The notes beneath the pieces are model-generated. The model searched no databases. It had not been told where the DNA came from and saw only the letters and a program-made list of their open reading frames with translations. DNA of 64,000 bases from an uncultured Gammaproteobacteria bacterium (GTDB taxonomy: Bacteria; Patescibacteriota; Patescibacteriia; UBA11705): positions 39,538-103,537 of the forward strand of contig CAYPSS010000004.1 of NCBI GenBank assembly GCA_964413735.1, in the 5' to 3' direction. A program made the translations under genes and the position numbers. Below, piece by piece: positions 4,505 through 49,809 of this stretch (its first letter is position 1; each line of letters opens with the position of its first letter).

Positions 4505-4526
4505 AGCTTAAATATTTTTTAAAGTG

Positions 4527-4558: not shown

Positions 4559-4559
4559 T

Positions 4560-7543: not shown

Positions 7544-7545
7544 AT

Positions 7546-9178: not shown

Positions 9179-9184
9179 GGCGAT

Positions 9185-9528: not shown

Positions 9529-9557
9529 AAAAAAATAGCCCGAAGGCTATTTTTTCG
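9529..9557 (-). terminator. Bidirectional terminator downstream of topA
   Basis: Hairpin atagcc-cgaa-ggctat flanked by an A7 run upstream and a T6 run downstream, immediately 3' of the topA stop (9566). Confidence 0.65.
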
Positions 9558-9565
9558 AAGATCTT

Positions 9566-15027: not shown

Positions 15028-15100
15028 TGAAAAAGATAGTCGCTTGACATAATTTTTTTATTAAAATAACATTTTAGGGCAAAAGAATGGGGGGCCGTTT

Positions 15101-28400: not shown

Positions 28401-31400
28401 AGGTGGTGGTGCCGGCCGGTTTTCGTGCCAAAGATGATCGCGGTCGTGATGTATATATGCCTGATGAATATGTTTGGACTTTTCATACCGGGACGGAGGA
28501 TTGTGATATAGAAGATGTTTTGGTCAATCCGGCGGAAGGAGTGATTGCCGAGGTTTATGAAACCCAAACTTACAAAGTTAGTGGACAAGCAGCCAATTGT
28601 GCGATTTTGGATGTTTCCGGCTATAGTTGGAATTGGACTTTGAATAAATATACGGATCATTTGGAAAAAGTAAATGATGAAAATGTTAAAGCGGAATTTG
28701 GTTTGAAATCCGCGTCGCAAACCGGGGCGTTTGAAACTCCGATTGATGATCCGGCACTGGTTAACGCCTCTACGGTTATTTCCGGTGCAAACAAAAGTGA
28801 TGAGGCCAAATTAGCGGTTAAGTTTAATAATCCACGGGTGGTTTCATATTGGCCGAATTGTGATGAAGCTTGTCGTAATGCGGAAATCGGGGCGCAATTT
28901 AATACTTACATGAAGAAAACAGAGATTGAAAATTTGGCGGTAAGTAATAGCTTGGCGCAAGTATTTAAATGTGATGATCAGGATTGTTTGTCAGTAGTGG
29001 GGAAACAAAATGTTCTTTCAAACGATTCTCAAGTGGAATGTGTTTCTACTACCGGATTAATCAGTCTGGGGCAAGGAGCAAATGCAATTGATGTTTGTAA
29101 TCAATTACGGATTTTCCCCGATCCGGTTTTGGATCCGTCTTCTTTTTATCGCGTCGTATTAAATGAAAATATTAAAAGTGTTAGCAATAAAACTTTAACT
29201 GGTTTGAATTTTGTCAGTACGGCTCAAACAATTGGGTTTTGCGGAAATGGATTAATTGAAGGGGAGGAACAATGTGAAGCTATTTGTCGGGATAAAAACT
29301 CCGGTTCATTGTGTATTTATGATGAGAATAGTCCAAATTGTGTTTGTAATTTAGCCAATAATCCTTATTGTGATAATGAATGTCAATTTAAGGCCTTCCC
29401 TGTTTGTTCTGCTACGCAAACCATTAATTGTTGTGGTAATGGCGTTGAAGAAACTTATACCGGTAATTACAATGTATCGTTGACGGAACAATGTGAAGCT
29501 GATTGTCGTCGTATAGTTGAAGAAAAGTTTGTGGGTGAAAATGCCAATGCTACTTGTACCACGGCTTTTAATGATTTGACTTTAGAACAACGTGCTTCGA
29601 CCGGTTGTAGTTGTTCAATTCCTCAAACTTGTGAGGCCGGAGAAAAAGTTTGTGCCAGCTATTGTTCCAATGATGTTAATCGAAAGTGTACGCAAGATTC
29701 AGTTGATTGTACTTGTATTGAACCGAAAATTTGCCAGGAAGCATTTAATGCTAACGGTCAAATTAAATATTGTACCGGCAATGAACCGGGCGCTTGTACT
29801 TGTGTACCGGAAAAAGCTTGTTTGTTATTGGATGGTGGGGTAGGTAATTCTTGTTCCGCCAGTACGGAGAATTGTGATTGTCGGGAATCTGGATATTATC
29901 AGTTCGCGCCAACGGAAAAATGTTTTGTGGATGCGGTTAATGATCCAAACACTCCGGAAGATGAAACGCAAACTAAGGGTACTTGTGTGAAAAAGTCTTT
30001 TTGTACGGAAAATCCTACTGAACAATGTACCGCTGATCGTTCGGCTTGCACTTGTGTGCCTTTGACATCAATAGCGACCGCCTCTTGTCCGGCTGGTGAT
30101 TTGGTATGTGAGCAAGTATGTACTTTCCAAAATGTGGAAACTTGTTTATCCGGTGAACCGGGATGTATTTGTTCTATGCCTAACGGTTGTACCAATTGTG
30201 TGGTAAATTCAACTTCAGCTGACGAAGAAGAAACAATTTTTGACGCATTTAGTTGGATTTTCAAGGTTCGTGATGGTGAAGCTTATTGTCGACCGGAAAA
30301 AGTGGAAGTGATGCCGGCAAATTATATTGCCACCATTTCCGGGCAAAAGGTGATTTACAGTGGTGTACCTTATACCAAACCGGATGTTTGCAGTGTAAAT
30401 GGTCAACGATTAAATATTTATGATTATGAATGGGATTGGGATTCTAATCCGGAAGATCGTTCCGTGAAAATAGAATTTGGGACATCTTTAAATTTATTTA
30501 ATTCGGCGCATCAAAAGTTAGTGGCTTTATTCAAGCAAACTTTTGCGGTCAGTAGCCAGCCGGGTTGCGGTGATAATTGTTTGAATTTAGGATCCTTAGT
30601 TTATGGCTCGGTTTGCGGTAATGGGATCGTGGAAAAAGGGGAGGAGTGCGATTCTAACTTATATTGTGATGGCAATTGTTTGCATGCCGGAACGCCGGCT
30701 TGTTTTGGCACTTCGGTTTCCGATGCGGGGGCGATTTGTTGTGGTAATGGGGTGGTAAATTCCGGAGAAGATTGTGATGGTGGTGCCGGTTGCAGTGATC
30801 GATGCTTGAAATTAGGATCAAATGCCAGTGGTTATACTTGTGGTAATGGGATCAAAGAGCCGGGTGAAGATGAAGATTATGGTAACTCGACATTAAATAC
30901 AAAATATGGTTTGAATGCCAATTGTTTATTGGTTGGTAGTGATTATCCCAAGCAAATTGTTAATGGTAACTTGCAGGAAATTGAATCAGCGGTTTGTGGC
31001 AATGGTAAATTGGAAGCCGGAGAAGAATGTGAACCGCGGTTATTAAATTGTCAAAAACCGAATGGTACAAGTTGTAACCCATATTCTGATGAGAATTGTG
31101 TTTGTGAAAAATATGAAGATCAATATTGCAGTAATAAATGTTTATTAAAACCGTTTGTGGCGTGTGGAACGATTAAAGTTTGTCAGGAAGATCAGACAAA
31201 ACAGTGTACCAATACAATTAATAAGTGTACTTGTGAGACTGAGTTTGGAAGTTCTCAGGGAGTTTGTGAGGAAGATGGAGTAACAAAATGTACTGGTGAT
31301 ATTCCGCCTTGTACTTGTATTACAAAAGAAATTAATCAAAATTGTTGTGGTAATGGTATTTTGGAACAAGTTGCGAGTTATGATGTTAATGGTAAACAAA

Positions 31401-34400
31401 TTGCTATTAAAGAAGAGTGTGAAGTTCAATGTGAAAATCCGGTTGGTTATTTTGCCTTTAACGAAGGTTCGGGAACAACAACAAAAAATTCAGTTACCGG
31501 GCAGTTGTTTTCAATTGCTAATCGAGTATGGGCAGAAGGACAAAGCGGTACAGCTTTGCAATATAATAATAATGGATGGATAAACTTGAAAAACACTTTT
31601 GATTGGCAGACTACCGATGGTGCGATTTCTTTGTGGTTTAAGACATCAGATCAAATAACCCGAACCTTGATTTCAAAAATTATTGATTCTTCTTCTTATT
31701 ATCAACCGGGAATGTATACTATAAACTTGGTTAATGGTCAGGTACAACTTCGTTTCATTGATGCTAATAAGGCAGTAGTTACAAATTTTGGGATTAAAAA
31801 TTATAATGATAATAAGTGGCATCATTTAGCGTTAATTTTTGATCGTGATAGTCATTTATCTCTTTATGTAGATGGTAACTTGGAATTACGCAATACAACT
31901 CAAGCCTTGAATATGAAGGATTTGGATTTAAGAAATAATGGCGTTGTTTTATTGGGAGCGAGAGGTTTATTGAACGAACAAGGAGGGAGTATGTTTGTTG
32001 GTTCAATTGATGAATTGAAGTTTTTCCGTAGTGCTTTAACTATTGAAGATATCAATCGTTTGATTAGTGGGGCACCTTGTGCTAATAAATTGCCGGTTGG
32101 TTGTACTCCTGGTTGTTTAAATGCCGGCGTGAATCCCAATTTTTCGGGAGAAAGTTATTGCGGAAATGGAGTAGTAGAACCGGGTGAAGATGCCTTGTGT
32201 GAAGCTAATCGAGGTAGTCAAATGGGTGCTCCATATATGAACTTGCAAGTTTTGGGTTATCTTCAGGGCAGTGTTTTGAGTGAAACGCTAAATGTTGTGG
32301 GTAAAATTAAAAGTAATGTTTCCTTTGCGGAGAGAGATGCCGGAGTAACCGGAGGGACGATGATTAGTGGTAATGGTAAATTTACTTATGTTTATACCGG
32401 AAATGGACCGGTGCCGGCTGGTTGTGATTTGAACAATCCGCCCAAAGGAATTTTGACCAGTCCGACGCAATTTAATGCTTGTCCCAATGGTGCGATTGTG
32501 ATTGATTATGACCAAACTTTGGAGTTTTTTGCTGAGCCGGCTATTCTGAATAATTTGACTTCTTATGTTAAACTGGAATATTTGGAATCGTCCGATAAAT
32601 GCAATTCCGTCGCAATCAATTCAAATTCACTATTTTCTAAATTAGCGCAAAAAGTAAAAGATATTTTCCATAGTTTGACGGGCAATGATGTGGTGGCGCA
32701 ACAATCCAGTCCTACACCAGTTGATTTGGTTTGGTGTTCGGAAACAAACTATTCTGTTAGTATTAGTTCAGGTCAAGGCGAAGGTGATTATAATGGTTCG
32801 CGGATTACCATTTTAACCAATGGAGAATTGTTAAAAACCAAGAATTATCGTGTGCGGTTATTACAAATGAAAAACAATTGTGACATGAATATGGGTGATC
32901 AACAATTCACCTTTAATGTAAAGGCTGATGTTTGTCAGTTGGATGGTATTAAAGTTTTGCAGGAAGACGAAGAAAACAGTGAAAAAGTTTGGGTGCCGGA
33001 TAAAATTGCCACTGAAAGAAATGAAGATTGGGAGACGATTCATTATCCATTGTCCGGATTAACAATTCTCCAGCCGGTTAAAGGTTATAATTGGGAATGG
33101 AAAGCCGGGATTAATGCTTCTACGACGACGGAGTGGTCAACGGCTGATGCTTCGTTAATATCCTTTGATTTGGGGGCAGCAACAACTGATCCGGATCAAG
33201 TGGAAATTAATAATAAAATCGGTCGAACGACCATTACTGCTTATGCGACAATTACCGAAGATTATTTTTACGGTAAAGTAGGAACCGTGATTCAGGGCTC
33301 GGGAACGGTTGATGTTTTCTTGTGTGAAAATCCTTGGTCAATCAGTCCCAGTGCTCTTGGTTGGACGGAAAATCAATATCATATCAGATTAATGTATTGT
33401 CGTGATGCCGGTAATATTAATGCCACAGATGATGATTTGCCGGATTTGCGCGTGGTGGAGGGGCCCTCAGCTTCCGGTTCTTTATTAAAGGAATATTTCT
33501 TCTTGCGCTCTGATTTGGATGCACAAACCGATGGTTCAGGCGATGCGATTGCTTTGCGAGTATATGCCAACCCTAATCATTTATCCGCCGGGGAATGGTT
33601 TATGCAAAATGTTCCTAATATTGAAAATTCAACTTTGTCGCCGATGAAGGTGGCTTGTGATACTCATCCATATTATGGTACGGAAGTTTGTTATTATGGG
33701 GTGCGAGATGGTAATACGATTTATATTGTAGCCGGTAATTTAAATAATAATGTTTTGTACGACAATATTTATATTTTGGCTTATAATTTGGAAGCTAATA
33801 GTACGACGACCGGAATTTATTCACAAATGCTCAATTATTTGACTTTTAATATCAACGTTGGTAATTCTAATGAAAGATGGAAAATTCAACGAGATATGAA
33901 GCGGGTAGTGGATATTTCCATGTTAAAACGCTTCTTAGCTTCTTATTTTCAAGATAAAGGTTCTTTGCCTGAAATTTCAAGCGGTTCGTATTTGCGAGGG
34001 ATGTCACTTAGCAGTTGGTTAAGTTGGAACTCTGTCTTGCAAGTTGATTTACGAGAGTATTTGCAGTCTGACGCCAGTTATCGCGGACAAATTCCCGAAG
34101 ACCCGATCAATTATTTTGAGCAATATGATCCCAGTACTAATTATAGCGGAACCAGATGTGCTGAAGATAGTCGTAGTTGTTTAACTGGTAATCATCAATG
34201 TTTTGCAGCGAAAAATTCATCGGTTTGTTCGGTTTGTGCTCCGGGGTCGGATCCTTTGACTTGTTATGATTCCACCACTTTGCAAGTTACCATTCCACCG
34301 GCCGATATTTTTAGCAGTAATAGTTATTTATATGGTTATCAGTATATGACTTATAATAGTGCTTTATTATATTATAATTTAGAAGGTAATTATTCGGTTA

Positions 34401-34435
34401 ATAATCAGCCGGAAAGTTCCTTATACATTGATTAA
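25472..34435 (+). CDS. Giant (2987 aa) cell-surface adhesin-like protein: pilin-like membrane module, IPT/TIG repeats, LamG/ConA-like domain, multiple CGNG-x3-GEECD cysteine-rich repeats
   Basis: Single uninterrupted ORF; antisense ORFs inside it are spurious. TIG-like ITIQGRNFG/ITIKGRNFG motifs. LamG-like region at about 31440-32050 (LSLYVDGNL...GSIDELKFF). At least six copies of CGNGxxExGEECD, a Myxococcus-type Cys repeat. Confidence 0.8.
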   Translation: MITTRTNKIALILFVLIIGIFLYGGGLVLAQENNVINEGLQAFGNETILGQEDPRVIIARVIRILLGFLGTVALAIVMYGGFLYMTSGGSEERVGKAKKWLINGIIGMVIIMSAFALTSFIIGALSDATGITNGSGTNTGTGTGPIGGESGYTVGISPVGENKPVNVVIKIQFPYGHLPASVENAQQSIKVYQLSGEEKTEVEVPGTFGISGRTVTFTPSGACPAGCEAENCFAINTEYRVKINDLQDSNNERIICPNPMLGYCKMVEFSTSGVCDLSGPDIAISQIAPQPLKQNNLFSTFVGARDNGGIFALELCPGWQADGPNVCREYLPENNPTALDYAFYNLDSSEAGFNLSLGWHDVKLFGEDVVGYKSEVTKRMLVASEACFDDNDEFNCSLAGCEVPCDECQDEENCEYYCVENETGETVCSPWPYPIIDLILPHYGPRNSFITIQGRNFGAFGPKSNVKMDNVVAGLACGGGANSWNNNQVIVKVPEGASDGWIRLTDADGYYNDTSDPNSPGWKDNFLIQQELSNWIGLCALDPTEGAPGTLVDASGENFGESGSVYFNQYTGTSPDSWSSTNISNIRVPNLAAGYVNVQISHNGVTDNVFSNPVRFKILPVEDNLEIFSVTPGDGPQKQLITIKGRNFGTSGTVSFISGADSYLAQFPCDGSWRDTEIIAQVPEDAPDGIYTLQVTGIKGTDSVDFNINNDPLVPGICSMTPNNGQPGTKVNFIGAAFGDDYGMVRFTGQSGVAQNIESGALKVQKVDWQDTKIVGVQVPPTAVSGDVKVIVDGEESNPAYFKVGKCSSDSQCGTGEICCEKSYCSTVDQCKPRITSSAYGWYFSTGLMPQIPKVLERECVLGEYDESTSPSNNEQMACPNGLISFTFNMKMQTAEFLDLENQVEIKHCTDSGRQCNLVECTSEGGCLAENYTFESIGNDLEGNPIINEIQDSVYNNREVTQVVLSDYDLTPDTWYQVVVPAGFRAKDDRGRDVYMPDEYVWTFHTGTEDCDIEDVLVNPAEGVIAEVYETQTYKVSGQAANCAILDVSGYSWNWTLNKYTDHLEKVNDENVKAEFGLKSASQTGAFETPIDDPALVNASTVISGANKSDEAKLAVKFNNPRVVSYWPNCDEACRNAEIGAQFNTYMKKTEIENLAVSNSLAQVFKCDDQDCLSVVGKQNVLSNDSQVECVSTTGLISLGQGANAIDVCNQLRIFPDPVLDPSSFYRVVLNENIKSVSNKTLTGLNFVSTAQTIGFCGNGLIEGEEQCEAICRDKNSGSLCIYDENSPNCVCNLANNPYCDNECQFKAFPVCSATQTINCCGNGVEETYTGNYNVSLTEQCEADCRRIVEEKFVGENANATCTTAFNDLTLEQRASTGCSCSIPQTCEAGEKVCASYCSNDVNRKCTQDSVDCTCIEPKICQEAFNANGQIKYCTGNEPGACTCVPEKACLLLDGGVGNSCSASTENCDCRESGYYQFAPTEKCFVDAVNDPNTPEDETQTKGTCVKKSFCTENPTEQCTADRSACTCVPLTSIATASCPAGDLVCEQVCTFQNVETCLSGEPGCICSMPNGCTNCVVNSTSADEEETIFDAFSWIFKVRDGEAYCRPEKVEVMPANYIATISGQKVIYSGVPYTKPDVCSVNGQRLNIYDYEWDWDSNPEDRSVKIEFGTSLNLFNSAHQKLVALFKQTFAVSSQPGCGDNCLNLGSLVYGSVCGNGIVEKGEECDSNLYCDGNCLHAGTPACFGTSVSDAGAICCGNGVVNSGEDCDGGAGCSDRCLKLGSNASGYTCGNGIKEPGEDEDYGNSTLNTKYGLNANCLLVGSDYPKQIVNGNLQEIESAVCGNGKLEAGEECEPRLLNCQKPNGTSCNPYSDENCVCEKYEDQYCSNKCLLKPFVACGTIKVCQEDQTKQCTNTINKCTCETEFGSSQGVCEEDGVTKCTGDIPPCTCITKEINQNCCGNGILEQVASYDVNGKQIAIKEECEVQCENPVGYFAFNEGSGTTTKNSVTGQLFSIANRVWAEGQSGTALQYNNNGWINLKNTFDWQTTDGAISLWFKTSDQITRTLISKIIDSSSYYQPGMYTINLVNGQVQLRFIDANKAVVTNFGIKNYNDNKWHHLALIFDRDSHLSLYVDGNLELRNTTQALNMKDLDLRNNGVVLLGARGLLNEQGGSMFVGSIDELKFFRSALTIEDINRLISGAPCANKLPVGCTPGCLNAGVNPNFSGESYCGNGVVEPGEDALCEANRGSQMGAPYMNLQVLGYLQGSVLSETLNVVGKIKSNVSFAERDAGVTGGTMISGNGKFTYVYTGNGPVPAGCDLNNPPKGILTSPTQFNACPNGAIVIDYDQTLEFFAEPAILNNLTSYVKLEYLESSDKCNSVAINSNSLFSKLAQKVKDIFHSLTGNDVVAQQSSPTPVDLVWCSETNYSVSISSGQGEGDYNGSRITILTNGELLKTKNYRVRLLQMKNNCDMNMGDQQFTFNVKADVCQLDGIKVLQEDEENSEKVWVPDKIATERNEDWETIHYPLSGLTILQPVKGYNWEWKAGINASTTTEWSTADASLISFDLGAATTDPDQVEINNKIGRTTITAYATITEDYFYGKVGTVIQGSGTVDVFLCENPWSISPSALGWTENQYHIRLMYCRDAGNINATDDDLPDLRVVEGPSASGSLLKEYFFLRSDLDAQTDGSGDAIALRVYANPNHLSAGEWFMQNVPNIENSTLSPMKVACDTHPYYGTEVCYYGVRDGNTIYIVAGNLNNNVLYDNIYILAYNLEANSTTTGIYSQMLNYLTFNINVGNSNERWKIQRDMKRVVDISMLKRFLASYFQDKGSLPEISSGSYLRGMSLSSWLSWNSVLQVDLREYLQSDASYRGQIPEDPINYFEQYDPSTNYSGTRCAEDSRSCLTGNHQCFAAKNSSVCSVCAPGSDPLTCYDSTTLQVTIPPADIFSSNSYLYGYQYMTYNSALLYYNLEGNYSVNNQPESSLYID

Positions 34436-39591: not shown

Positions 39592-39692
39592 ATATATTAA
39601 TTAAATATAAAAACAGGGGTTTAAATGCCCCGGTTTTTATTTTATGTTTTATCCATATTTTATGGTATAATTTTAACATTAGATTAAATTAT

Positions 39693-40850
39693 ATGCTCGA
39701 ACTATTCTCCCAAAAATTAAAAGCCAACTTCACCCCTGAACAGCAGGATTATTACTTGCAATTGGAAAATGAATTAAAAGAACTTTTGGGCGGTCAAACG
39801 CAGGAGGAAGTACTTGCCAGTGGCGATCCGGAAATTATCCAACAAATTTTGAAGATCAAGCAAGAAATGCTTAATTTTGTGTTAACCAAGAAGACTAGGG
39901 AAATGGTTAGGCAGGAGGAAGCGATGAACCAAAGATTGTTAAAACAAAACGAAGAACAGCTGGAATATGAACAACAAATAGCAATCTTAGACAACATAGA
40001 AATAAAGCATAATGCCGGACAGCAATTAACAGAAAGTGAATTAAAGTTTTTGTATCGACTTGATGGTTTGGGATTGCCTTTTGATGTTAATGATAAAGAA
40101 CAAAAAAGGTTGGATTCTATTATTTTCAATCGTAATTTTAATCAGGAGGTAGCGAATCTTTTGGGTTGTCGAGAGGATCAGGTATGTCTTCTTCAAAATG
40201 AAGGTTTTGATAATGGAGATATGGTTTATCATCTTGGGGATATTGATCTACCAGATGTGACTCAAGTTGACGATCTTGTTTTGCCGAAAATAATTAATGG
40301 CGGAGTGTTTTTAAGAGATTTAATTTTTCCGGAAGGTTTACAATTACCTCAAACGGTGGTCGGACACTTGGATTTATTTCTATTGGCCAGTGTCGATGAT
40401 TTGAGTTTCCCTGATTTTGTGGCTGGTGATGTGAATTTAAGAAGTTTGCTTAAAGCCAAGGATTTACGTTTGCCTAAAGTAATTGGCATGGATGTTAATT
40501 TAAATGATTTGGAGGAAGTGGACAAGTTGATTTTTCCGGATCAGGTTCCAGGGAATGTTAATTTGTCAAAGTTAAAAAATTTCAAAAATTTAATTTTGCC
40601 ACGAAGTATTGGGGGTAATTTGGATTTAAGATCTTTGTCCAGTCCTGACGGATTGGTTTTACCACGGTTTATTGGTGGTAGTCTTGATTTGAGTGGATTA
40701 CAAACTTTGGAAGGATTGATTATCCCATTGGGAATTAAAAAAGTGGATTTAAGTCATTTTTCTGATGAAGAAATGGAAAAAATAAGAGAGAAATTCCCTC
40801 ATGTGGAATTTGCCAATTATCAAAATTCGTTTTCTTCAAGTATAATTTAA
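39693..40850 (+). CDS. LRR-like repeat protein, paralog A (conserved 75-aa N-domain + coiled coil + ~22-aa L-x-L-P-x-x-I-G-G-x-L-D-L repeats)
   Basis: 385 aa. N-terminal domain MLELFSQKLKANFTPEQQDYYLQLENELKELL... is about 90% nucleotide-identical to genes 47832 and 49030. About 10 degenerate repeats of the type LRLPKVIGMDVNLNDLEEVDKLIF; shared C-terminus EKIREKFPHV. Confidence 0.7.
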   Translation: MLELFSQKLKANFTPEQQDYYLQLENELKELLGGQTQEEVLASGDPEIIQQILKIKQEMLNFVLTKKTREMVRQEEAMNQRLLKQNEEQLEYEQQIAILDNIEIKHNAGQQLTESELKFLYRLDGLGLPFDVNDKEQKRLDSIIFNRNFNQEVANLLGCREDQVCLLQNEGFDNGDMVYHLGDIDLPDVTQVDDLVLPKIINGGVFLRDLIFPEGLQLPQTVVGHLDLFLLASVDDLSFPDFVAGDVNLRSLLKAKDLRLPKVIGMDVNLNDLEEVDKLIFPDQVPGNVNLSKLKNFKNLILPRSIGGNLDLRSLSSPDGLVLPRFIGGSLDLSGLQTLEGLIIPLGIKKVDLSHFSDEEMEKIREKFPHVEFANYQNSFSSSII

Positions 40851-40868
40851 ATTTACAATAATATCATT

Positions 40869-41882
40869 ATGAAAATGCAATTGAAAACCAGAGTTTTGAT
40901 TTTACTGCTGATTTTGGTTTTGGAAATTGCCATTTTAACGGTTTTATTAACTTTGAAAGATTATGGGGAAAATAATAAACCGATTATTGGCGTGACTTTT
41001 TCTAAGGTTTACGTGGAAAATGATTTGGGTTTGGATTGGCGACAAGCTTATTTGGCAATTTTGGATGATTTGCAAATCAAAAATATCAGAATTGCGGTAC
41101 CATGGAATAAAATTGCGCCAACCTTTGGTCAATATGAGTTTCAAGATTATGATTGGATGATGGAGATGGCCGATGAAAGAGGCGTTAAAGTGATTTTAGC
41201 TATTGGACATCGCACCCCACGGTGGCCGGAATGCCATACACCTGATTGGTTAAGAGATTTAACGACGGAAAAAGCGGACCTAGAACAACAACAAATGATT
41301 GCCGATGTAGTGACACATTTTAAAAAATATTCCGCTTTGTGGTGGTGGCAAATTGAAAATGAACCTTTTTTGGATTCATTTGGCGAATGTCCCCCCATGT
41401 CAATTGAACAATTAAAAAAAGAAATTGCCATTGTCAAAAGTTTGGATTCGCGTCCAATCCTGATTACCGATAGTGGTGAGTTAAGTTTTTGGTTCAAAAC
41501 CGGTCATTTGGGAGATAAGTTTGGTCATACTTTGTATCGGGAAGTTTATAATCAATATTTGGGATTTTTCCGTCATGTTTTCCCACCTTCATTTTATTGG
41601 TTAAAGGCGCGAATGGTAAATTTGGCGCCAAGTGATGTGATTGTAGCGGAGTTGCAAGCTGAACCTTGGGTACCCTATGGTTATAATTTAACTTTTGATT
41701 CTGATCAGTTGAAGAAAATGATGACCGCGGAAAAGTTATCCTCTAATTTTGAATTTGCTCGTCGAACCGGTGCACGGGAAATTTATTTTTGGGGGGTGGA
41801 GTGGTGGTATTGGTTAAAGGAAAAACAAAATGATCCATCGTTGTGGCAAGAAGCCAAAAAAATAATAAATCAATATAAATAA
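40869..41882 (+). CDS. Membrane-anchored glycoside hydrolase, clan GH-A-like (GH5/GH113-type)
   Basis: 337 aa. N-terminal TM helix; the WQIENEP motif is the conserved Asn-Glu-Pro acid/base catalytic triplet of clan GH-A TIM-barrel hydrolases; candidate nucleophile region AELQAEPW. Confidence 0.5.
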   Translation: MKMQLKTRVLILLLILVLEIAILTVLLTLKDYGENNKPIIGVTFSKVYVENDLGLDWRQAYLAILDDLQIKNIRIAVPWNKIAPTFGQYEFQDYDWMMEMADERGVKVILAIGHRTPRWPECHTPDWLRDLTTEKADLEQQQMIADVVTHFKKYSALWWWQIENEPFLDSFGECPPMSIEQLKKEIAIVKSLDSRPILITDSGELSFWFKTGHLGDKFGHTLYREVYNQYLGFFRHVFPPSFYWLKARMVNLAPSDVIVAELQAEPWVPYGYNLTFDSDQLKKMMTAEKLSSNFEFARRTGAREIYFWGVEWWYWLKEKQNDPSLWQEAKKIINQYK

Positions 41883-41884
41883 AT

Positions 41885-42436
41885 ATGAAAAAAATTATTT
41901 TGGTCATAATAATGATGGTTATGCTCGCGCCTTTTGTTGTTAATGCTCAAAGCGGATATTTTTTGCGCCCCGGTATTTTGCCGGATTCAAAGGTTTATTG
42001 GTTGGATTTGTGGGGCGAGGAAGTGAGATATTTTTTCACTTTTGGGGAAATAAATAAGGCGGATTACAAAATCAGGGTAGCCAAAGAACGACTAAGTGAA
42101 TTGAAACGACTTTACGAATTGGGTGTAACCAGCTACACTGATATGTTGCTGACAAAATATGAAAATGAAATTGAAATTGCCTTGGCGCTGTATGCTCAAG
42201 CCAAAATCGATTCAGCGGAAAAAATCAAGGAACTGCAAAATTATACGGAAGAGCAAATTATTTTAAATGAGGGTGATGTAAAAAATTATTTGATCAATAC
42301 TGTCCCTGATGAATATGATTCGGCGGTCAATCAAACTATGGGAGCGATCGGTTATGGCTTCCAGCAATTATTAATTCATTTGGAACAGAAAAACAAGGAA
42401 ATTCAACAGAAAAAAGCTGATTTGGGGGTTAAATAA
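41885..42436 (+). CDS. Hypothetical secreted coiled-coil protein
   Basis: 183 aa. Signal peptide ...FVVNAQS; alpha-helical, charged. Confidence 0.45.
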   Translation: MKKIILVIIMMVMLAPFVVNAQSGYFLRPGILPDSKVYWLDLWGEEVRYFFTFGEINKADYKIRVAKERLSELKRLYELGVTSYTDMLLTKYENEIEIALALYAQAKIDSAEKIKELQNYTEEQIILNEGDVKNYLINTVPDEYDSAVNQTMGAIGYGFQQLLIHLEQKNKEIQQKKADLGVK

Positions 42437-42494
42437 AATTTTCAATTGTAGTTAATTTTTGTTATAATGAAATATCAATATTCAATGATTTTAT

Positions 42495-45011
42495 ATGAAT
42501 TTTGAAACGCCCGTAGTTGGGCAAAAAAAATTGGAAGTGGCGGTGGCCAAAAATATTCCCCAAAAACATCAGAAATATTTGGAAAGAGCCAAGCAGTTTT
42601 TGGAACAACGCCAAGCGGTTTTGACTGATATTGCCGGTGATCGATCACTTCGTTATTCCATTGGTAAGGGTTTTTTTATAAATTTAGAGGAGGGGATTAT
42701 CAATGTTGATATTGGGTTTTGGGAAAAGCAAGAAAAATATGGTTGGAGCGATGAACAAATGTTTTGGGCGGTGTGTCATGAAATTGCGCATTTTTGGGAT
42801 TTACGGGAGGATCCGGAAGGGATGCTGGCTAACTTTGAATACATGAAACACAAAGGGATTGAAGTGGCGGAAGTGGTGGAACAAATTTTAAGGCGGAAAT
42901 ATCCCCAATTACCGGAATATTTAACGAAAAAAAAGCACAAGATCAGTAAACGTGATCCACGTCGGTATTCCGGCTTGGAAGTATTTATTATAAAACGATT
43001 TCGAGAATTTTATAATTGTTTGGATGATATTTATGTTAATAAAAGAGTCGGCCGAAAAGTTCTTCCGTTTTTAATTGAAGAAAGTAGTTTAAGTGATCTG
43101 CGCATCAGTTCGGTGGTGGAGGATTTGTATCGTGAACATTTATTTCCTGCTTCAGAAAAAAAGGATAAACCGGGTGAACGAATGGATTTTTATCATTTGG
43201 AAGATAGTGCCAAGCATACTCAGTTAATGTATTATTTATTACGCAAAAGAATGGTGCCTGACCAACCAATTATTGTGGATGATGAAGTTAAGGATATTTT
43301 ACAAAGCACTGATTTGGGTGGCGTGCCATTTGAGACATTTGTGGATTTGTTGGTAACGCCGGGTATTGCAGGTACAAAAAGTGATAGTCGGGCGGGAATC
43401 AGATATCAGAAAATTAGACAGTTTGTTGAACCGGTTTTTATCAAATTATTATTGCAAGATATGGAAAATGAAGAAATTCCTCCGGAATCAGAAACCAAAC
43501 CGGAGGGCGGTGCAGGTGGTGAAGGTGGTGATTCGAGTGGTGAACCTTCTGAACCGCAAGATTCAGATGATTCTTCAGGCGAGCCAGGTTCAAGTGATCA
43601 ATTGCCACAGCCCGATGGTAATAAATCGGAAAAAGATGATGATGAGGATGATGATGGAGAAGATGGCGATGAAGGTAAAGATGGCGATAAGGATAAAGAT
43701 AAAGATGGTAGTGGTGAAGGGAAAGATGGTGATAAAGATCAGGGCAAGGATAAAGATGGCGGTGATGGTAAAGAGGGCGATAAAGATCCCAAAGATGGGA
43801 AAGAACCAAAGAGTGGTAAAGAATCAAAGAGTGGTAAAGAATCATCTGACGGTAAAAAGAAAAAAACCAATCCATGGAAATCACCCGGGAGTAAAGAGCA
43901 ACAACAGATTAATGAAGATACGGTTCGTGATTTCCTTGATTCCAAAAGAAAAAAAGAAAGTCAAGAAAAACGAGACAAGAAAAAGGCCCGAAGACTTGAT
44001 ACCCCGCAAGCGCGTCAACGTGAAATGCTCGAAGTAGCGGATCAAGAATTTTCTCAAACGCATAATGTTCCGGTTGAGGCGATTAAAAAGTATCGTTCAA
44101 TTGCCAATGAAGTTTGGCCGTTTCAAATGGAAATGGCACAGGTTTTTGAATTAATCAGTCGAAAAATTCGCAGTCAAGTTTCCATGGTTTGGGATCGTTA
44201 TTATCATAGTGGTCGCTTGGATGTGCAAAAGTTTATTCGTAAGTACGGTCATTTCTTGCAAGAAGGAGCGGTGGACTTTATTCCGTTTGATGCGTTATCT
44301 TCTTATGAAAAAAAACAATTTTTGGAAAAACTGATCATTAAACCGGATGAATTTCGTTTGCGTTTGGTGATTGACAGTTCAGGGTCAACTAATGGTGCGG
44401 TGATGGAAACAATGTTGCGCGTGATTGTATTGTATTTGGAATCACTGGCAACTTTTGAAGACAAAATTACCCGAATGTTCAAGGAAGAATCGCTGACTAT
44501 TCCGCCCTTAAAAATTAACACGCAGTTGATTCAGTTTGGTGATACGGCCAAAGTTTTGAAGCCTTTGCATTTAACACGGGTTATTCCTCAGGCGCAAGAA
44601 CGAGCGGAACGAATTAACGGGGTTTATTCCATTGCTGTTGGTGGAAGTACTTATGATGATACGGCTTGGGCGGAGGTTTTGAGAACTCGTAACCCGGGTG
44701 ATGAGGAAAAGATCAAACAGGGTGATTTGTTGGATTTGGCGATTGAAATTACCGATGGTGCTTCATCTAATCCCGAAGGTACGGCGCAAATGGTGGATCA
44801 GGTGCATGAATCCGGAATTTTGGCGCGGGCGATTCAGATTAATTTAGGCGATGGCCCAGAGGCTCAAAATGCTCAACAAATATTTGAGGGCATTTGGGGG
44901 GAAGAGGGTGAAAGTATTCGTACTCTTAGTGATTTGGTGCCGGCTATGTATAATTTATTAAAACAAGCCATTGAGCAAATTGATTTTGTGGTGGAAATGG
45001 TGGATGAATAA
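42495..45011 (+). CDS. Zincin-like (HExxH) domain - acidic disordered linker - von Willebrand factor A (vWA, MIDAS) domain fusion protein
   Basis: 838 aa. N-terminal HEIAHFWD (HExxH). A 170-aa D/E/K/G low-complexity linker; frame-shifted ORFs inside it are artifacts. C-terminal vWA with MIDAS LVIDSSGSTNG (DxSxS) and ITDG motifs. Confidence 0.7.
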   Translation: MNFETPVVGQKKLEVAVAKNIPQKHQKYLERAKQFLEQRQAVLTDIAGDRSLRYSIGKGFFINLEEGIINVDIGFWEKQEKYGWSDEQMFWAVCHEIAHFWDLREDPEGMLANFEYMKHKGIEVAEVVEQILRRKYPQLPEYLTKKKHKISKRDPRRYSGLEVFIIKRFREFYNCLDDIYVNKRVGRKVLPFLIEESSLSDLRISSVVEDLYREHLFPASEKKDKPGERMDFYHLEDSAKHTQLMYYLLRKRMVPDQPIIVDDEVKDILQSTDLGGVPFETFVDLLVTPGIAGTKSDSRAGIRYQKIRQFVEPVFIKLLLQDMENEEIPPESETKPEGGAGGEGGDSSGEPSEPQDSDDSSGEPGSSDQLPQPDGNKSEKDDDEDDDGEDGDEGKDGDKDKDKDGSGEGKDGDKDQGKDKDGGDGKEGDKDPKDGKEPKSGKESKSGKESSDGKKKKTNPWKSPGSKEQQQINEDTVRDFLDSKRKKESQEKRDKKKARRLDTPQARQREMLEVADQEFSQTHNVPVEAIKKYRSIANEVWPFQMEMAQVFELISRKIRSQVSMVWDRYYHSGRLDVQKFIRKYGHFLQEGAVDFIPFDALSSYEKKQFLEKLIIKPDEFRLRLVIDSSGSTNGAVMETMLRVIVLYLESLATFEDKITRMFKEESLTIPPLKINTQLIQFGDTAKVLKPLHLTRVIPQAQERAERINGVYSIAVGGSTYDDTAWAEVLRTRNPGDEEKIKQGDLLDLAIEITDGASSNPEGTAQMVDQVHESGILARAIQINLGDGPEAQNAQQIFEGIWGEEGESIRTLSDLVPAMYNLLKQAIEQIDFVVEMVDE

Positions 45012-45039
45012 AATTAAATAAATAATTTAATATAACAAT

Positions 45040-47811
45040 ATGACAAAAGAGCAAATGCCTCGAAGAATTTATACCAAGGTTGAGGATCTATCAGCCCAAG
45101 AAAAATCAACTTTGGATTTACAAGAAAATGAAGTGAAAGAAATTTATCGTCGGCGAGAAGAACTTTTCACGCGTTGGCGTAATATTTCGAAATTTTTTCG
45201 AAAAAAAGTGGAACAACAAGTTAGAACCAAACTCGGCAAAGGAAAAAAATCCGAAAAAGCAGGAATGGAAATTATAGAAAGACCTTTGCGTTTAATGGGG
45301 CTTGATGAAATGGGGTTGGAGGCTATTATGGCTTGTGTTGATCGTGAAGCGGTTTTGAAAGATCAGCAAAAAAATAATCCGCATAGCCGTAATTGGGAAC
45401 AAGATGCGGATCGTTTTATTACTCGCAATTTAACCATGGATGTTAAAGGTATTTTACAGGATTTACGAGCTTTGAAACAAGGTGATGAAGATGCTGATTT
45501 TCATCCGGAGCGTTCGGCGGATTTTTATGAAGAAAACTTGCACGATTTACATGTTGCCCGAGAAAAATTGAAAAAATTTCAACAAGAATTGGATGCTTTG
45601 CTCTTGGATATTAATATGGCGAAAAAAGCCGGACAAAAGCGCTTGGTGAAAAGATTTGGTGAGGAGTATCATGAAAAAGAGCGAGAATATTTGGATTATA
45701 TTAGAACTGATCGACTAGCTTTTTTGGTTGTTCAAGCTAAGCGATTGCGACAAATGAAGGAAACTTTTGATAAAAATGGTCGCATTGTGGAAACCCCATA
45801 TGTTCAACAAATGATGGCGCGTATTGAAGATGTGATTGATGGTAATCGGCCGGTTTTTATTCATGGTGAATTGGGGAGCGGTAAAACCGCTTTGGCTAAA
45901 CATTTGTGTGTGTCTAGAATATCCAGTGAATATTTGGATCGTTGGGAGCAGGGTAATGAAGAGTTGGGCTTAAAACCGCATCCGCGACCGGTTCGTGGTT
46001 CTTTGTCGCGTTTGGAATATGAAAAACAAATGGAAGAATGGGAAAATCTGCGACGAAATGCAGCGGAACCGATTTTAATTTCCGGGCACAAAGAAATTGA
46101 AGTGGAAACATTTATTGGTGGGTTTAAGATTGAACGAATGAAAAAAATGACACCCCAAGAACAGGTGGAATTTATTAAGGAAGAAAAAAGAAAATACCAA
46201 GAAAAATATAAGACTGAATCTGATCCCGATCAATTAAAGAAAGATTTGCAATTATTGGAACGAAGTTTAATGCAGTCTTTTGATACGGCGGTGGAAACAA
46301 CCGCTTATTTGGGAAAGTTTTATCGGGCCATGTATGAAGGTCGTCCGATAATTATTGATGAAGTTAATGCGATCCCACACCATGTTTTGATTATGCTTAA
46401 TGAGTTGTTGACTCTAAAACCGGGGGATACGGTCAATCCGGCGGTGGATAATTTGCCGTCTTTCAAGGTGGCTAAAGGTTTTTCGGTGATATTGACCGGT
46501 AACTGGCGTCCGGGTAGTAATAAATTATATGTTGGCCGTCAACAAATGGACGCCGCCTTTTTGTCTCGTTTGGCGATTATTCCTTATGATTTCTTGCCTA
46601 ATGCCACTGATGCCAGTGCTTTTATCAATGAACCGACAACGCCGGAAGAAGAACAGGAGAGACGAGAGCAGTTGGCTGGTAATGAATTAACGCAAATGTT
46701 GGTTGTTCGTTTAATGGATAGTCCCGGATCCGGATTTGAAGCGCCGGAAGATGCTTTTCAGAAAATCAATCGTTTAGCGATTGTTGCTCGTGGTATAGAA
46801 AATGTTTTGTCCAAAAATGACGTGGATCGCGAATTTTTCCCGGCTAATGCCAATGTGACCACTAATCCTAAGGATATTTTAAGTGAAAACGTTTTGTCTT
46901 TGCGTCATTTGATTCCCATTATTGAAGAATGGCGAGCTAACGGTTATTCGCGTGATTTGGATGAATATTTATTTTTGCATTATGTTGAACGATCACAACA
47001 GCGGCCGGAAGAGTTTGCTTACCTATATGAAATTTTGCAACGCGTTGGTGGTTTTTTCCCAACTTCAAAAGGTTGGCCAACAGCCGGGGCGTCTGATCTT
47101 TTGAAATTACTTGAAGAATTTAATGTTTCTAAGAAAATGTATGGTGCGATGGAATCAGGCGATCGTCGACAATCAGCTTTGTCAGCCGTTGATACGGAAG
47201 TGGCTCCACTCAAACATTATTCCATGGTGGAGGTGGTGGAACAATTATTCGGTAAATTGCCGGAACGTAAACGCGTGGGGAAATTAATTAAGCCAATAAA
47301 ACCCGAAGAAGTGGAAATTGATCCTTTGGTAGAAGCTCAGCGGAGATTATTAGCCGAGCAAATAGCGGAAATCGATCGTAAACTCTTTGAAAATTTAGAG
47401 GGAGATAGAGAGGCTATTACCAAAAAAGATTTGGCTCAATTTCATAAATGTCGTGAAGATCAGGTGAGTTTAACAAAAGAAGAATTTTTGGCCGGAAGAG
47501 ATATTGTCTTTCATTATGGAAATCTTGATTTGGGAGAATTTGTTAATCCGGAAGGATTGATTTTACCAAGTCAAATTGCCGGTGATCTGGATTTAAGTGG
47601 TTTGCAAACCATCGAAGGTTTGAAATGGCCTGATAGCGTGATAGGAGTGGTGTACTTGAATAATATAACTTCGGCTAAGGGATTGTTTGAATTACCGGTG
47701 GGTATTCGAACTATAGTTTTTGGAAAAGATATGCCAGATTCAGAGATTGAAAAACTACAAAAACATTATTCCGAAGATCTTAAGAAAACTTTTAAAAAGG
47801 CTACAGCTTAA
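45040..47811 (+). CDS. MoxR-like AAA+ ATPase with N-terminal coiled-coil region and C-terminal LRR-like module shared with the adjacent paralog family
   Basis: 923 aa. Walker A HGELGSGKTALAKH; MoxR-type Walker B/box IIIDEVNAIPHHVLIMLNELL (cf. DEINRAPPKTQSALLEAMQE); sensor-1 VILTGN; Arg-finger-region FLSRL. The C-terminus CREDQVSLTKEEFLAGRDIVFHYGNLDLGEF... matches the LRR paralogs. Confidence 0.75.
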   Translation: MTKEQMPRRIYTKVEDLSAQEKSTLDLQENEVKEIYRRREELFTRWRNISKFFRKKVEQQVRTKLGKGKKSEKAGMEIIERPLRLMGLDEMGLEAIMACVDREAVLKDQQKNNPHSRNWEQDADRFITRNLTMDVKGILQDLRALKQGDEDADFHPERSADFYEENLHDLHVAREKLKKFQQELDALLLDINMAKKAGQKRLVKRFGEEYHEKEREYLDYIRTDRLAFLVVQAKRLRQMKETFDKNGRIVETPYVQQMMARIEDVIDGNRPVFIHGELGSGKTALAKHLCVSRISSEYLDRWEQGNEELGLKPHPRPVRGSLSRLEYEKQMEEWENLRRNAAEPILISGHKEIEVETFIGGFKIERMKKMTPQEQVEFIKEEKRKYQEKYKTESDPDQLKKDLQLLERSLMQSFDTAVETTAYLGKFYRAMYEGRPIIIDEVNAIPHHVLIMLNELLTLKPGDTVNPAVDNLPSFKVAKGFSVILTGNWRPGSNKLYVGRQQMDAAFLSRLAIIPYDFLPNATDASAFINEPTTPEEEQERREQLAGNELTQMLVVRLMDSPGSGFEAPEDAFQKINRLAIVARGIENVLSKNDVDREFFPANANVTTNPKDILSENVLSLRHLIPIIEEWRANGYSRDLDEYLFLHYVERSQQRPEEFAYLYEILQRVGGFFPTSKGWPTAGASDLLKLLEEFNVSKKMYGAMESGDRRQSALSAVDTEVAPLKHYSMVEVVEQLFGKLPERKRVGKLIKPIKPEEVEIDPLVEAQRRLLAEQIAEIDRKLFENLEGDREAITKKDLAQFHKCREDQVSLTKEEFLAGRDIVFHYGNLDLGEFVNPEGLILPSQIAGDLDLSGLQTIEGLKWPDSVIGVVYLNNITSAKGLFELPVGIRTIVFGKDMPDSEIEKLQKHYSEDLKKTFKKATA

Positions 47812-47831
47812 TATTTGATTTGTAGAATAAA

Positions 47832-49028
47832 ATGCCCGAACTATTTCCCCAAAAACTAAAAGCCAATTTCCCCCCTGAACAGCAGGATTATTATTTACGA
47901 TTGGCAAATGAATTAAAAGAACTTTTGAATGGTCAAACGCAGGAGGAAGTGCTGGCCAGTGGCGATCCGAAAATTATCCAAAAAATTTTGAAGATCAAGC
48001 AAGAAATGCTGAATTTTGTGTTAACCAAGAAAACTAGGGAAATGGTAAAACAAGAAGAAAAAGAACAAGAAGAAAGAATATTGAGACAAAGAAAAGAGCA
48101 ATTGGAAAAAGAAAGACAAACAGTAGGTTTAGATGAAATTGAAAGAAAACAAAAGGCGGGTGAAGAATTAACTGATAATGAATTGAAGTTTTTGTATCGG
48201 ATTGATGGACTTGGTTTGTCTTTTTCATCTAGTAATGAAGATAAAAAACGAGTAGAAGATATTATAAATCAACGAAATATTAAGGAAGATGTTTCTTATG
48301 TTTTAGGTTGTTCAGAAGATCAAGTGAGTTTAACAACACAAGAGTTTTTAGCTGGGACAGACATTGTTTATCATTTTGGATTTCTTGATTTAAGAAGTTT
48401 AACGAACATTGAAGGAGTAAAATTACCGCAAATTATTGGTGGGGGTCTTTATTTAGGCAGTCTAACGAGCGCTGAAGGATTACAATTACCGCAAAGTATT
48501 GCAGGAAGTCTTTATTTAAGCCGTCTAACGAGCGCTGAAGGATTACAATTACCGCAAATTATTGGTGGAAGTCTTGATTTAGAAAGTATAACGAGCGCTG
48601 AAGGATTACAATTACCGCAAAGTATTGGAGGGTGGCTTGATTTAAGTAGTATAACGAGCGCTAAAGGATTACAATTACCACAAAGTATTGGCGAAGATCT
48701 TTATTTAAACAGTTTAACGAGCGCTGAAGGATTACAATTACCGCAAATTATTGCAGGAAGTATTTATTTAGGCAGTCTAACGAGCGCTGAAGGCTTACAA
48801 TTACCGCAAAGTATTGGTGGAAATCTTGATTTAAGCAGTCTAACGAGCGCTGAAGGATTACAATTACCGCAAAGTGTGGGAGGAAATCTTAATTTAAACA
48901 GTCTAACGAGCGTTGAAGGATTAGAAATCCCTTTGGGTATTAAATCACTTTGTTTTGAAAAAATGTCAGATAATGAAATTGAAAAATTAAAACAAAAATA
49001 TCCGCATATAACAGTAACAAAAGAATAA
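47832..49028 (+). CDS. LRR-like repeat protein, paralog B, with 9 near-identical 21-aa repeats (LTSAEGLQLPQSIGGNLDLSS)
   Basis: 398 aa. Same N-terminal domain as paralogs A and C; the repeat block is encoded by 63-bp tandem DNA repeats. Confidence 0.75.
   Translation: MPELFPQKLKANFPPEQQDYYLRLANELKELLNGQTQEEVLASGDPKIIQKILKIKQEMLNFVLTKKTREMVKQEEKEQEERILRQRKEQLEKERQTVGLDEIERKQKAGEELTDNELKFLYRIDGLGLSFSSSNEDKKRVEDIINQRNIKEDVSYVLGCSEDQVSLTTQEFLAGTDIVYHFGFLDLRSLTNIEGVKLPQIIGGGLYLGSLTSAEGLQLPQSIAGSLYLSRLTSAEGLQLPQIIGGSLDLESITSAEGLQLPQSIGGWLDLSSITSAKGLQLPQSIGEDLYLNSLTSAEGLQLPQIIAGSIYLGSLTSAEGLQLPQSIGGNLDLSSLTSAEGLQLPQSVGGNLNLNSLTSVEGLEIPLGIKSLCFEKMSDNEIEKLKQKYPHITVTKE
48386..48930 (+). repeat. About 8.6 copies of a 63-bp in-frame tandem repeat (VNTR) inside LRR paralog B
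   Basis: Unit ctaacgagcgctgaaggattacaattaccgcaaagtattggtggaaatcttgatttaagcagt is repeated head-to-tail with only a few substitutions per copy. Confidence 0.85.
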
Positions 49029-49029
49029 T

Positions 49030-49809
49030 ATGCCCGAACTTTTTTCCCAAAAATTAAAAGCCAACTTCACCCCTGAACAGCAGGATTATTATTTACAATT
49101 GGAAAATGAATTAAAAGAACTTTTGGGCGGTCAAACGCAAGAGGAAGTACTTGCTAGTGGCGATCCGGCAATTATCCAACAAATTTTGAAGATCAAGCAA
49201 GAAATGCTGAATTTTGTGTTAACCAAAAAGACTAGAGAAATGACTAGACAAGAGGAGAAAGAAAGATTGAAACAAGAAAAACGATCAATTAGTTTGGATG
49301 AAATTGAGAGAAAACAAAAAGCCGGAGAAGAATTAACAGATAATGAATTGAGGTTTTTGTATCGGATTGATGGGTTTGGATATTTTTACTCTGAATATTC
49401 AAATGAAAGGAGAGTGTTAGATATAATAAAAAAAAGAAATGTTAAACAAGATGTCTCGTATCTTTTGGATTGTGATGAAGAGCAGGTAAGTTTAACTGAA
49501 GAAGAATTTTTAAATAACAAAGATATTTTGTATCATTGTAATAATCTTATTCTTCCTACTACTAATATGGCACAATTGAAATTACCTAAATATGTGCGGG
49601 GTATTCTTCAATTACCTGGAGTGACAAATGCCACTGGATTAATATTTCCTGAGGTTTTTCAAGTTCATTTACCAAATTTACAATCTACAGTAGGTTTGGA
49701 ATTTCCTGATTCCATTAAATTTGTGGCGGTGGATGCAAGAATGCCAGATAAGGAATTCAATAATTTGAGAATCAAATATCCTCAGATTCTTTTTACAAAG
49801 TTTACATAA
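49030..49809 (+). CDS. LRR-like repeat protein, paralog C (short; few degenerate repeats)
   Basis: 259 aa. The N-terminal 75 aa is nearly identical to paralogs A and B; the start is 2 bp after the stop of paralog B. Confidence 0.7.
   Translation: MPELFSQKLKANFTPEQQDYYLQLENELKELLGGQTQEEVLASGDPAIIQQILKIKQEMLNFVLTKKTREMTRQEEKERLKQEKRSISLDEIERKQKAGEELTDNELRFLYRIDGFGYFYSEYSNERRVLDIIKKRNVKQDVSYLLDCDEEQVSLTEEEFLNNKDILYHCNNLILPTTNMAQLKLPKYVRGILQLPGVTNATGLIFPEVFQVHLPNLQSTVGLEFPDSIKFVAVDARMPDKEFNNLRIKYPQILFTKFT

Follow-up and report, generated by a model that had tools for sequence, protein, structure and literature searches.

The 64,000-nucleotide stretch of DNA analysed here (the window; contig CAYPSS010000004.1 of assembly GCA_964413735.1, a patescibacterial genome) encodes between positions 39693 and 49809 a block of genes that is most plausibly the Falkowbacteria-type version of a three-component, cytoplasmic module of Patescibacteria, with a putative role in conflict or recognition. 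Its components are an AAA_5 ATPase, a protein joining an HExxH domain to a von Willebrand factor A (vWA) domain, and a family of variable repeat proteins. The architecture of the module, i.e. the ATPase/vWA pair, a recurrent diversifying third part, fusions of variable domains to the ATPase and a set of conserved motifs, is well supported. All open reading frames (ORFs) of the block lie on the + strand with intergenic gaps of 1-116 nt, and the order from 42495 to 49809 is HExxH-linker-vWA gene, ATPase gene and two repeat paralogs, with the third paralog at 39693. Co-orientation alone is little evidence, since the genes of the window are strongly co-oriented overall. A reading of the same DNA from its letters only (hereafter the sequence-only reading) had proposed these ORFs, the HExxH motif, an acidic linker, a vWA domain with its metal ion-dependent adhesion site (MIDAS), three repeat paralogs and a repeat module fused to the ATPase, and all of them were present. 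None of the three component types showed a transmembrane (TM) or signal segment, and their location is predicted to be cytoplasmic for that reason.

The core of the module is the pair of ATPase and vWA genes. A scan of one genome per GTDB species yielded 64 ATPase loci from Falkow-, Uhr-, Moran-, Magasanik-, Azam-, Kaiser-, Taylor-, Pace-, Gracili- and Saccharibacteria (including Nanosyncoccus), and all homologues of the ATPase came from Patescibacteria. Pairing was surveyed by searching the six-frame ORFs of all loci, 66 of them distinct, with profiles of both families. The vWA gene adjoined the ATPase gene in 45 of the 66 loci, on the same strand in 44 of these 45, and the pair was adjacent in 27 of the 28 loci with at least 4.5 kb of sequence on both sides (full-flank loci). 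Both gene orders occur. The two genes thus form an obligate couple. The sequence-only reading had pointed to conservation of the whole triad as a check; this conservation holds for the pair but does not extend to the window repeat family as such, in whose place related loci carry analogous families. The sole full-flank locus without a vWA partner (L051:6643-9446) encodes a short ATPase of 599 aa. It is directly preceded by a hairpin protein of the type targeted by diversity-generating retroelements (DGRs, see below), and there is no reverse transcriptase within 7 kb. In the locus flanks we found neither a conserved client enzyme beside the pair nor a conserved secretion gene beside the module.

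The window ATPase (923 aa, 45040..47811, +) comprises a variable helical N-region (aa 1-226), the AAA+ core and a helical C-domain. The core contains Walker A (GELGSGKT, aa 276-283, 45865-45888, +), Walker B (IIIDE, aa 437-441, 46348-46383, +), sensor 1 (46492-46503, +) and the segment GRQQMDAAFLSR (46534-46569, +); some 100 aa are inserted between Walker A and Walker B. Columns G276, G279, G281, K282, D440, E441, N488, R510 and R622 are invariant in the family and R500 is at least 90% conserved. N488 would be the sensor-1 Asn, R500/R510 the Arg finger and R622 the sensor-2 Arg. Pfam AAA_5 matched the window protein with 33.4 bits (cut-off 22) and 34 of 35 family members (best 3.2e-16), and neither AAA_3 nor CbbQ_C matched the window ATPase or any of its 35 relatives. 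In a search of the family profile against PDB, Midasin was the sole significant match (1.4e-6). Midasin matches spanned Walker B to the Arg-finger region in several AAA modules, other PDB matches covered the P-loop only, and MoxR, RavA, NorQ and CbbQ were not among the matches. Since the six modules of Midasin inflate its summed score, we treat this affinity as a lead rather than as proof. The Walker B box, which had been read as a MoxR signature, is thus not specific for MoxR. The assignment to the wider group stood: judged from its profile matches, the ATPase is a member of the AAA_5 branch of the broad MoxR-like group, not of MoxR proper. The core (aa 423-518) also matched phrog_249, a phage CobS-like family labelled 'porphyrin biosynthesis' (1.9e-18), which suggests kinship with the CobS/CobT pairs (AAA_5 plus acidic-linker vWA) found in phages.

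The partner of the ATPase is a putative adaptor/effector protein of 838 aa (42495..45011, +), composed of the HExxH domain (aa ~20-330), a linker, a helical region (aa 474-612) and the vWA domain (aa ~615-830). The linker (aa 333-458, 126 residues, 43491..43868, +) is acidic, G/K/D/E-rich and of low complexity, contains short tandem DNA repeats (43632-43844) and is predicted to be disordered by AlphaFold (pLDDT <50). The vWA/MIDAS domain (44337..44984, +) has the expected alpha/beta fold and the motif DxSxS...T...D, formed by D627-S-S629-G-S631 (DSSGS, 44373-44387), T719 (44640-44660) and T753-D754-G755 (ITDG, 44748-44759). The intact MIDAS noted from the letters of the window is a feature of the whole family, with its motif residues kept in 152-164 of 164 non-identical full-length relatives (D627 in 164, S629 in 163, S631 in 163, T719 in 152 and D754 in 163). 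Pfam VWA scored 20.4 bits against the window protein, below the gathering score of 23.8, and matched 10 of 15 relatives (best 1.9e-11). Midasin shared the top rank among the fold matches of the vWA domain to solved structures, and the CobT profile gave a weak match to the protein (E 0.15).

The HExxH domain carries the motif HEIAH (aa 95-99, 42777..42791, +) within a helix of the structure models (aa 86-105), and a second motif, NCLDDIYVN (aa 174-182, 43014-43040, +). Across the same 164 relatives H95 was conserved in 163, E96 in 164 and H99 in 164, and the partner motif N174-x-x-D-D178-x-x-V-N182 was almost invariant. Neither Pfam nor NCBIfam placed the window domain in a peptidase family, Pfam likewise gave none for 15 relatives except for one Peptidase_M3_N match at E 0.66, and Foldseek against PDB returned nothing significant. 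Structure 3cmn probably belongs to a zincin-like family. The domain is probably zincin-like, judging from the motif and a weak fold match; of the zincin proposed earlier, the near-invariant HEIAH on a helix was borne out and a peptidase profile match was not obtained. A census among 1.84 billion proteins returned 186 representatives at E<=0.001, and the 150 matches listed were mostly proteins of 620-980 aa plus shorter fragments. The HExxH domain occurred in no other architecture, and vWA formed the C-terminus in all 164 members.

The third component in the window is represented by three repeat proteins. Paralog A (385 aa, 39693..40850, +) consists of a helical N-domain (aa 1-75), a coiled-coil/linker, a pre-repeat cap from aa 159, about nine degenerate 21-22-aa repeats of leucine-rich repeat (LRR)-like character and the C-terminal cap 'FSDEEMEKIREKFPH'; it had no Pfam match and no TM or signal segment. 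Paralog B (398 aa, 47832..49028, +) has nine regular 21-aa repeats with the unit consensus LdLsSLTSAEGLQLPQsIGGs, encoded by a 63-bp tandem array at 48383-48923 (8.6 copies, TRF score 737, 85% matches). Paralog C (259 aa, 49030..49809, +) combines the N-domain of A and B with about three degenerate repeats and a cap. The general unit of these repeats is LxLxxLxxxxGLxLPxxIGGx, in which positions 2, 4, 5 and 17-21 vary. Overall identity among the three proteins was 54-55%, and the first 233 nt of their genes (6 nt upstream of the ATG included) showed 89-93% DNA identity. At least nine close paralogs, all with a nearly identical 75-aa N-domain, were found on three NCBI contigs. No relatives of this N-domain were found in the metagenome scan, and neither Pfam nor PDB LRR profiles matched the window paralogs. 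The window contained no homologue of a DGR reverse transcriptase or Avd, and its variation would come from paralogy and a recombination-prone repeat array in place of a DGR.

The same repeats also end the ATPase itself. Its C-terminus is fused to a receptor-like module (47449..47811, +), in which three 21-aa repeats stand between a pre-repeat cap (CREDQVSL...) and the cap MPDSEIEKLQKHY. ATPase aa 804-923 were 45-48% identical to paralog B in protein and 82% identical in DNA over 77 nt. Among 74 ATPase homologues this LRR-like module was present only in the window protein and an 86%-identical relative. A common C-terminal tail of ~170 aa is present on the ATPases of L005 and L028 and may be another fused variable or binding domain. 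The repeats were further found in P0194, a Firmicute-type protein of 615 aa (L006/L007:10001-11848) that combines the window linker 'ELT..ELKFLY.IDG..GFGY' with 21-aa repeats 49% identical to those of paralog B and occurs on >300 contigs. Its N-domain of 330 aa contains 'GWCTAAGENF', and its gene adjoins rmuC with no ATPase or vWA gene nearby. This context indicates that the 21-aa repeat module also travels outside the ATPase/vWA system.

In most informative loci of other lineages we found an analogous third part, made up of one to 11 tandem paralogs that combine a helical N-domain with a variable C-domain. Same-strand tandem paralogs lie beside or between the pair in L010 (8), L016 (11), L019 (6), L011 and L015 (2 each) and in Saccharibacteria (1-5), and the arrays often lie between the two core genes (L034, L037, L042, L055, L058, L060, L062, L063). 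On a complete 697-kb Paceibacterota chromosome (L063), ten third-part copies of ~200-240 aa surround one pair, seven of them upstream on the opposite strand (3-4565, -) and three on the same strand (6803-10774, +). The C-domains differ among lineages. L016 has classical LRRs (L.C..N.L..LP) that match LRR_1 (26.2 bits, threshold 20.6) and also LRR_4, L019 has 40-aa repeats, those of L011 are alpha-helical and those of Saccharibacteria are beta-rich. The LRR character ascribed to the window repeats was recovered by profiles in the L016 arrays but not in the window paralogs. The window family is tied to an array beside another ATPase/vWA pair by a member of the L010 array, which carries window-type 21-aa repeats and cap and to which residues 29-267 of paralog B align with E 7.7e-12. 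The window C-terminal repeats and cap matched the L010 array profile at 95% probability, mainly via this member, and the L010 and L016 arrays matched each other at 98% probability.

Other features of the N-domains were seen in subsets of the third-part families. In three families a cysteine stands among the first 3-10 residues ('MSECQQLK', 'MNCNELRK', 'TCESLEQQY'), and after it come a helix, an (S/T)G turn and another helix (L029, L034, L037, L042, L051, L055-L064, L062/L063). The strict N-terminal motif M..C..L[KR] was found in few loci only. In the N-domain comparisons a recurring sub-threshold match to the ATPase insertion was dismissed, as the matching sequences are homologous to each other and therefore not independent.

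In several lineages the variable domains are C-type-lectin-like and are targets of DGRs. A DGR reverse transcriptase was encoded in nine loci and an Avd gene in seven. An imperfect-repeat scan of the loci found pairs of template repeat (TR) and variable region (VR) of 113-124 nt, in which 81-100% of mismatches fell at TR adenines. Such pairs were present in L004, L029, L034, L037, L041, L042, L046 and L049 and absent from the window. The ATPase gene carries the VR at its 3' end in L004, L041 (two copies) and L049; in L029, L034 (two), L037, L042 (two) and L046 the VR is at the 3' end of genes for stand-alone proteins of 320-390 aa. In L037 one VR lies in a protein and a second at the contig edge where no ORF was called. 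A single template is shared by two VRs in L034, L037 and L042, and one of the two is in a gene between the vWA and ATPase genes. The DGR of L004 stands directly 3' of the ATPase homologue P0066 (1101 aa), with VR at 13180-13298, TR at 13519-13637, Avd at 13684-14064 (-) and reverse transcriptase at 14130-15092 (+); 21 of its 26 mismatches are at TR adenines. The same arrangement was seen in L041, where each of two ATPase copies has its own DGR, and in L049.

The stand-alone DGR targets and the long ATPases are related to each other. Comparison with hhalign showed the N-terminal hairpin of the stand-alone proteins to be homologous to the segment with which the C-terminal tail of the long ATPases begins (93%, E 2.5e-7); its similarity to the families of Saccharibacteria and L062 is weak (47-56%). 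The variable module thus occurs in two forms, attached to the motor or as a separate protein, and the same is the case for the LRR-like module of the window. Altogether, variable domains are fused to the ATPase in five lineages (L004, L041, L049, L065 and the window). The earlier proposal of a diversifying specificity component formed by the repeat proteins received independent support from these comparisons, with different variable arrays at the same position and, in nine loci, DGR VRs in them or in the ATPase C-terminus.

The sequence-only reading had likened the block to the vWA-MoxR ternary conflict systems, whose VMAP, iSTAND, FtsH and beta-propeller types were described by Kaur, Burroughs, Iyer & Aravind 2020 (PMC7159879); MoxR-like ATPases with attached sensors that DGRs diversify are covered by PMC7159879 and PMC10907252. 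This resemblance holds in part. Both combine an ATPase of the MoxR-like group with an adjacent MIDAS-vWA protein and a diversifying third component, in both DGRs rewrite a putative sensor and paralogs differ in their variable domains, and both include a peptidase domain (a putative one in the module). The module differs in its ATPase, which is of the AAA_5 type and nearest to Midasin and phage CobS-like proteins instead of AAA_3 MoxR. Its vWA domain is C-terminal after the HExxH domain and acidic linker, whereas the published vWA domains are N-terminal to swappable effectors, so that effectors C-terminal to vWA are missing here, as is the defining third component of those systems. Moreover, all loci of the module found here are patescibacterial, whereas multicellular bacteria are the group enriched in the published systems, and Patescibacteria are not mentioned in PMC7159879.

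Midasin / Rea1 (MDN1) is a eukaryotic ribosome-assembly AAA+ mechanoenzyme. It shares with the patescibacterial module the AAA_5 type of ATPase, a disordered region rich in D/E and, at one terminus, a MIDAS domain of the ligand-gripping kind. Unlike Midasin with its six fused AAA modules, the patescibacterial module consists of two polypeptides with one AAA module per chain, and it adds an HExxH domain and variable receptors while showing no evident link to ribosome assembly. The adjacent AAA+ and vWA genes are also reminiscent of NorQ/NorD, CbbQ/CbbO, CobS/CobT and BchI/BchD, and an acidic linker ahead of the vWA domain is shared with BchD and CobT; unlike in these pairs, no metalloenzyme client is conserved nearby, and the module additionally has an N-terminal HExxH domain and a variable third component. 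A zincin protease and vWA in one chain have been described for CLCA proteins (PMC3650047), but these are secreted, self-cleaving and without an AAA+ partner, and no sequence or profile similarity was detected between the CLCA N-domain and the HExxH domain.

Parts of the module appear to have been noted before as DGR targets. PMC10907252, citing Paul 2017, gives fusions of C-type lectin (CLec) domains to AAA ATPases as the commonest DGR target architecture in candidate phyla radiation (CPR) bacteria, and Wu et al. 2017 (PMC5758913) list UVR4 DGR targets with a 'Midasin' match. The long ATPases of L004, L041 and L049 belong to the window ATPase family and carry a C-terminal DGR VR, as do these CPR targets, and appear to be the same 'CLec fused to AAA ATPase' proteins. 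The window version differs from them in carrying LRR-like repeats on its ATPase and in having no reverse transcriptase or Avd. For the obligate HExxH-vWA partner, the tandem receptor arrays and the LRR-type version we found no description in the literature searched, which covers Paul 2017 at second hand, and the module was not mentioned in a Saccharibacteria genetics paper or a Patescibacteria review.

We infer that the module recognizes changing non-self targets, either phage proteins or host-cell molecules, and does not act as a housekeeping chaperone. The fusions suggest that the variable domains would be receptors on the ATPase ring, either covalently fused or docked via the constant N-domain. 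By analogy with Midasin and the NorQ/NorD-type pairs (PMC9976466, PMC13036017, PMC7159879), the MIDAS domain might grip an acidic residue of a partner while the ATPase ring applies force, and ligand binding could thus be coupled via ring and MIDAS adaptor to ATP-driven remodelling. In the most speculative step, remodelling would activate or feed the HExxH protease, the only enzyme-like output domain; a proteolytic output is accordingly put forward as a candidate only. A more far-reaching reading, a split Midasin-like AAA_5/MIDAS mechanoenzyme with a constant-N/variable-C receptor repertoire (LRR arrays, other repeat arrays or lectin folds rewritten by DGRs) and an ATP-gated protease, serving germline-encoded or somatically diversified recognition, is a tentative proposal with less chance of being right than wrong.

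Several observations weigh against a recognition module of this kind. Six further close paralogs of the window repeat proteins are encoded on other contigs, apart from the ATPase/vWA pair. No third part was recognized in 37 of the 66 loci, many of them short contigs but including the full-flank loci L003, L009 and L012. Similarity of the window 75-aa N-domain to other third-part N-domains was not significant with hmmsearch and hhalign (E about 0.04-8), and for this reason their equivalence rests on position, architecture and the link to L010. The genes flanking the pair are housekeeping genes that vary by locus, rather than defence islands. Finally, Pfam and PADLOC searches of the window proteins found no VMAP, effector-associated domain (EAD) adaptor, iSTAND, FtsH, vWA-fused beta-propeller or classical toxic effector, and PADLOC defence models gave only faint P-loop matches to the module.

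The housekeeping flanks also fit a model in which the variable proteins are clients and not receptors. Here an AAA_5/vWA chaperone or unfoldase would capture the N-domain via the MIDAS and the HExxH domain would remove it as a leader, so that variable adhesins or effectors, which the epibiont uses on its host, would be matured or exported by a non-Sec route. A constant N-domain followed by a variable C-domain does resemble leader-plus-cargo families, NorQ/NorD, CbbQ/CbbO and Midasin act on MIDAS-captured clients (PMC9976466, PMC13036017, PMC7159879), and it has been proposed that the DGR targets of CPR bacteria may serve in host interaction (relayed in PMC10907252). A released client is however hard to reconcile with the covalent fusion of variable domains to the ATPase in five lineages, and the components have no signal peptide or TM segment and no conserved adjacent secretion gene. 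Because of the fusions and the missing export signals we consider the client model rather improbable, although it is still the main rival of the receptor model.

A second alternative would be an ordinary MoxR-type chaperone pair that matures a metalloenzyme or complex, with the arrays and DGR targets as unrelated, fast-evolving neighbours. The classical role of MoxR-like/vWA pairs is that of maturation factors (PMC9976466), about half of the loci are without a recognized third part, and Patescibacteria genomes are generally rich in DGRs and paralog families (PMC10907252, PMC5758913). Chance neighbours would not be expected, however, to form same-strand arrays that often lie between the core genes, to have a receptor module or DGR VR fused to the ATPase in five lineages, or to be homologous to the fused tail when free, and no candidate client enzyme is conserved beside the pair; this explanation therefore seems unlikely to us. 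A prophage or other mobile-element part, e.g. a phage CobS/CobT-like auxiliary module, would agree with the phrog_249 match of the ATPase core and the patchy distribution across classes, but is very improbable given a single weak partial match among 2.9 million viral contigs, no PHROG matches for the other components, flanks of ftsA/ftsZ and a HAD hydrolase here and of housekeeping genes elsewhere, and neither an integrase nor a shift in composition.

Base composition is even across the window (GC about 0.37-0.40). Upstream (5') of the block lie genes for giant T4SS_pilin-domain proteins, ybeY, dagK, ftsA and ftsZ, with a terminator-like hairpin after ftsZ (39616-39631), and downstream (3') follow a HAD-IB hydrolase, thiamine pyrophosphate (TPP)-enzyme halves, a methyltransferase, nrdR/nrdD and prfA. 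Two genes stand between paralog A and the vWA gene, ahead of which there is an extended -10 promoter-like site (42439-42468). The first (40869..41882, +) encodes a membrane-anchored glycoside hydrolase (GH)-like protein of the clan GH-A type with an N-terminal TM segment, matching GH42 (1e-7) and GH10 (1.7e-5) over part of its length. The second (41885..42436, +) encodes a secreted DUF5667 protein of 183 aa (2e-16) with a signal-like N-terminus. Both were considered as module components and rejected. They accompany the pair only in the Falkowbacteria locus L016 (60% and 50% identity, respectively) and both carry export signals, and we judge them to be lineage synteny outside the module.

Two further regions of the window are of separate interest. 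Upstream of ftsA/ftsZ, proteins of 723 and 2987 aa (23264-25435 and 25472-34435) have N-terminal T4SS_pilin domains together with Big_5, TIG and laminin-G domains and are followed by TSP3-repeat and EF-hand proteins, and this region looks like a surface-filament or adhesin locus. Between 4001 and 6000, GC content rises to 0.48 (about 0.37 elsewhere) and ORFs overlap on both strands (4560-5288 -, 4836-5282 +, 4846-5379 -); no RNA family in Rfam was found there at the gathering threshold.

Much of bacterial diversity belongs to the Patescibacteria, organisms with tiny genomes that live on other cells. The module links the long-noted AAA ATPase-CLec DGR targets, an obligate HExxH-vWA partner and tandem variable arrays into one unit with a fixed motor/adaptor core, on which it can be tested whether these organisms run a receptor repertoire, directed against phages or used for host recognition. 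It is also carried by Saccharibacteria (L054-L071), the class with the few cultured, genetically tractable Patescibacteria. The similarity of both core proteins to Midasin bears on the origin of this eukaryotic protein, and should the affinity prove genuine, the eukaryotic Midasin architecture would have its closest prokaryotic relative in this pair.

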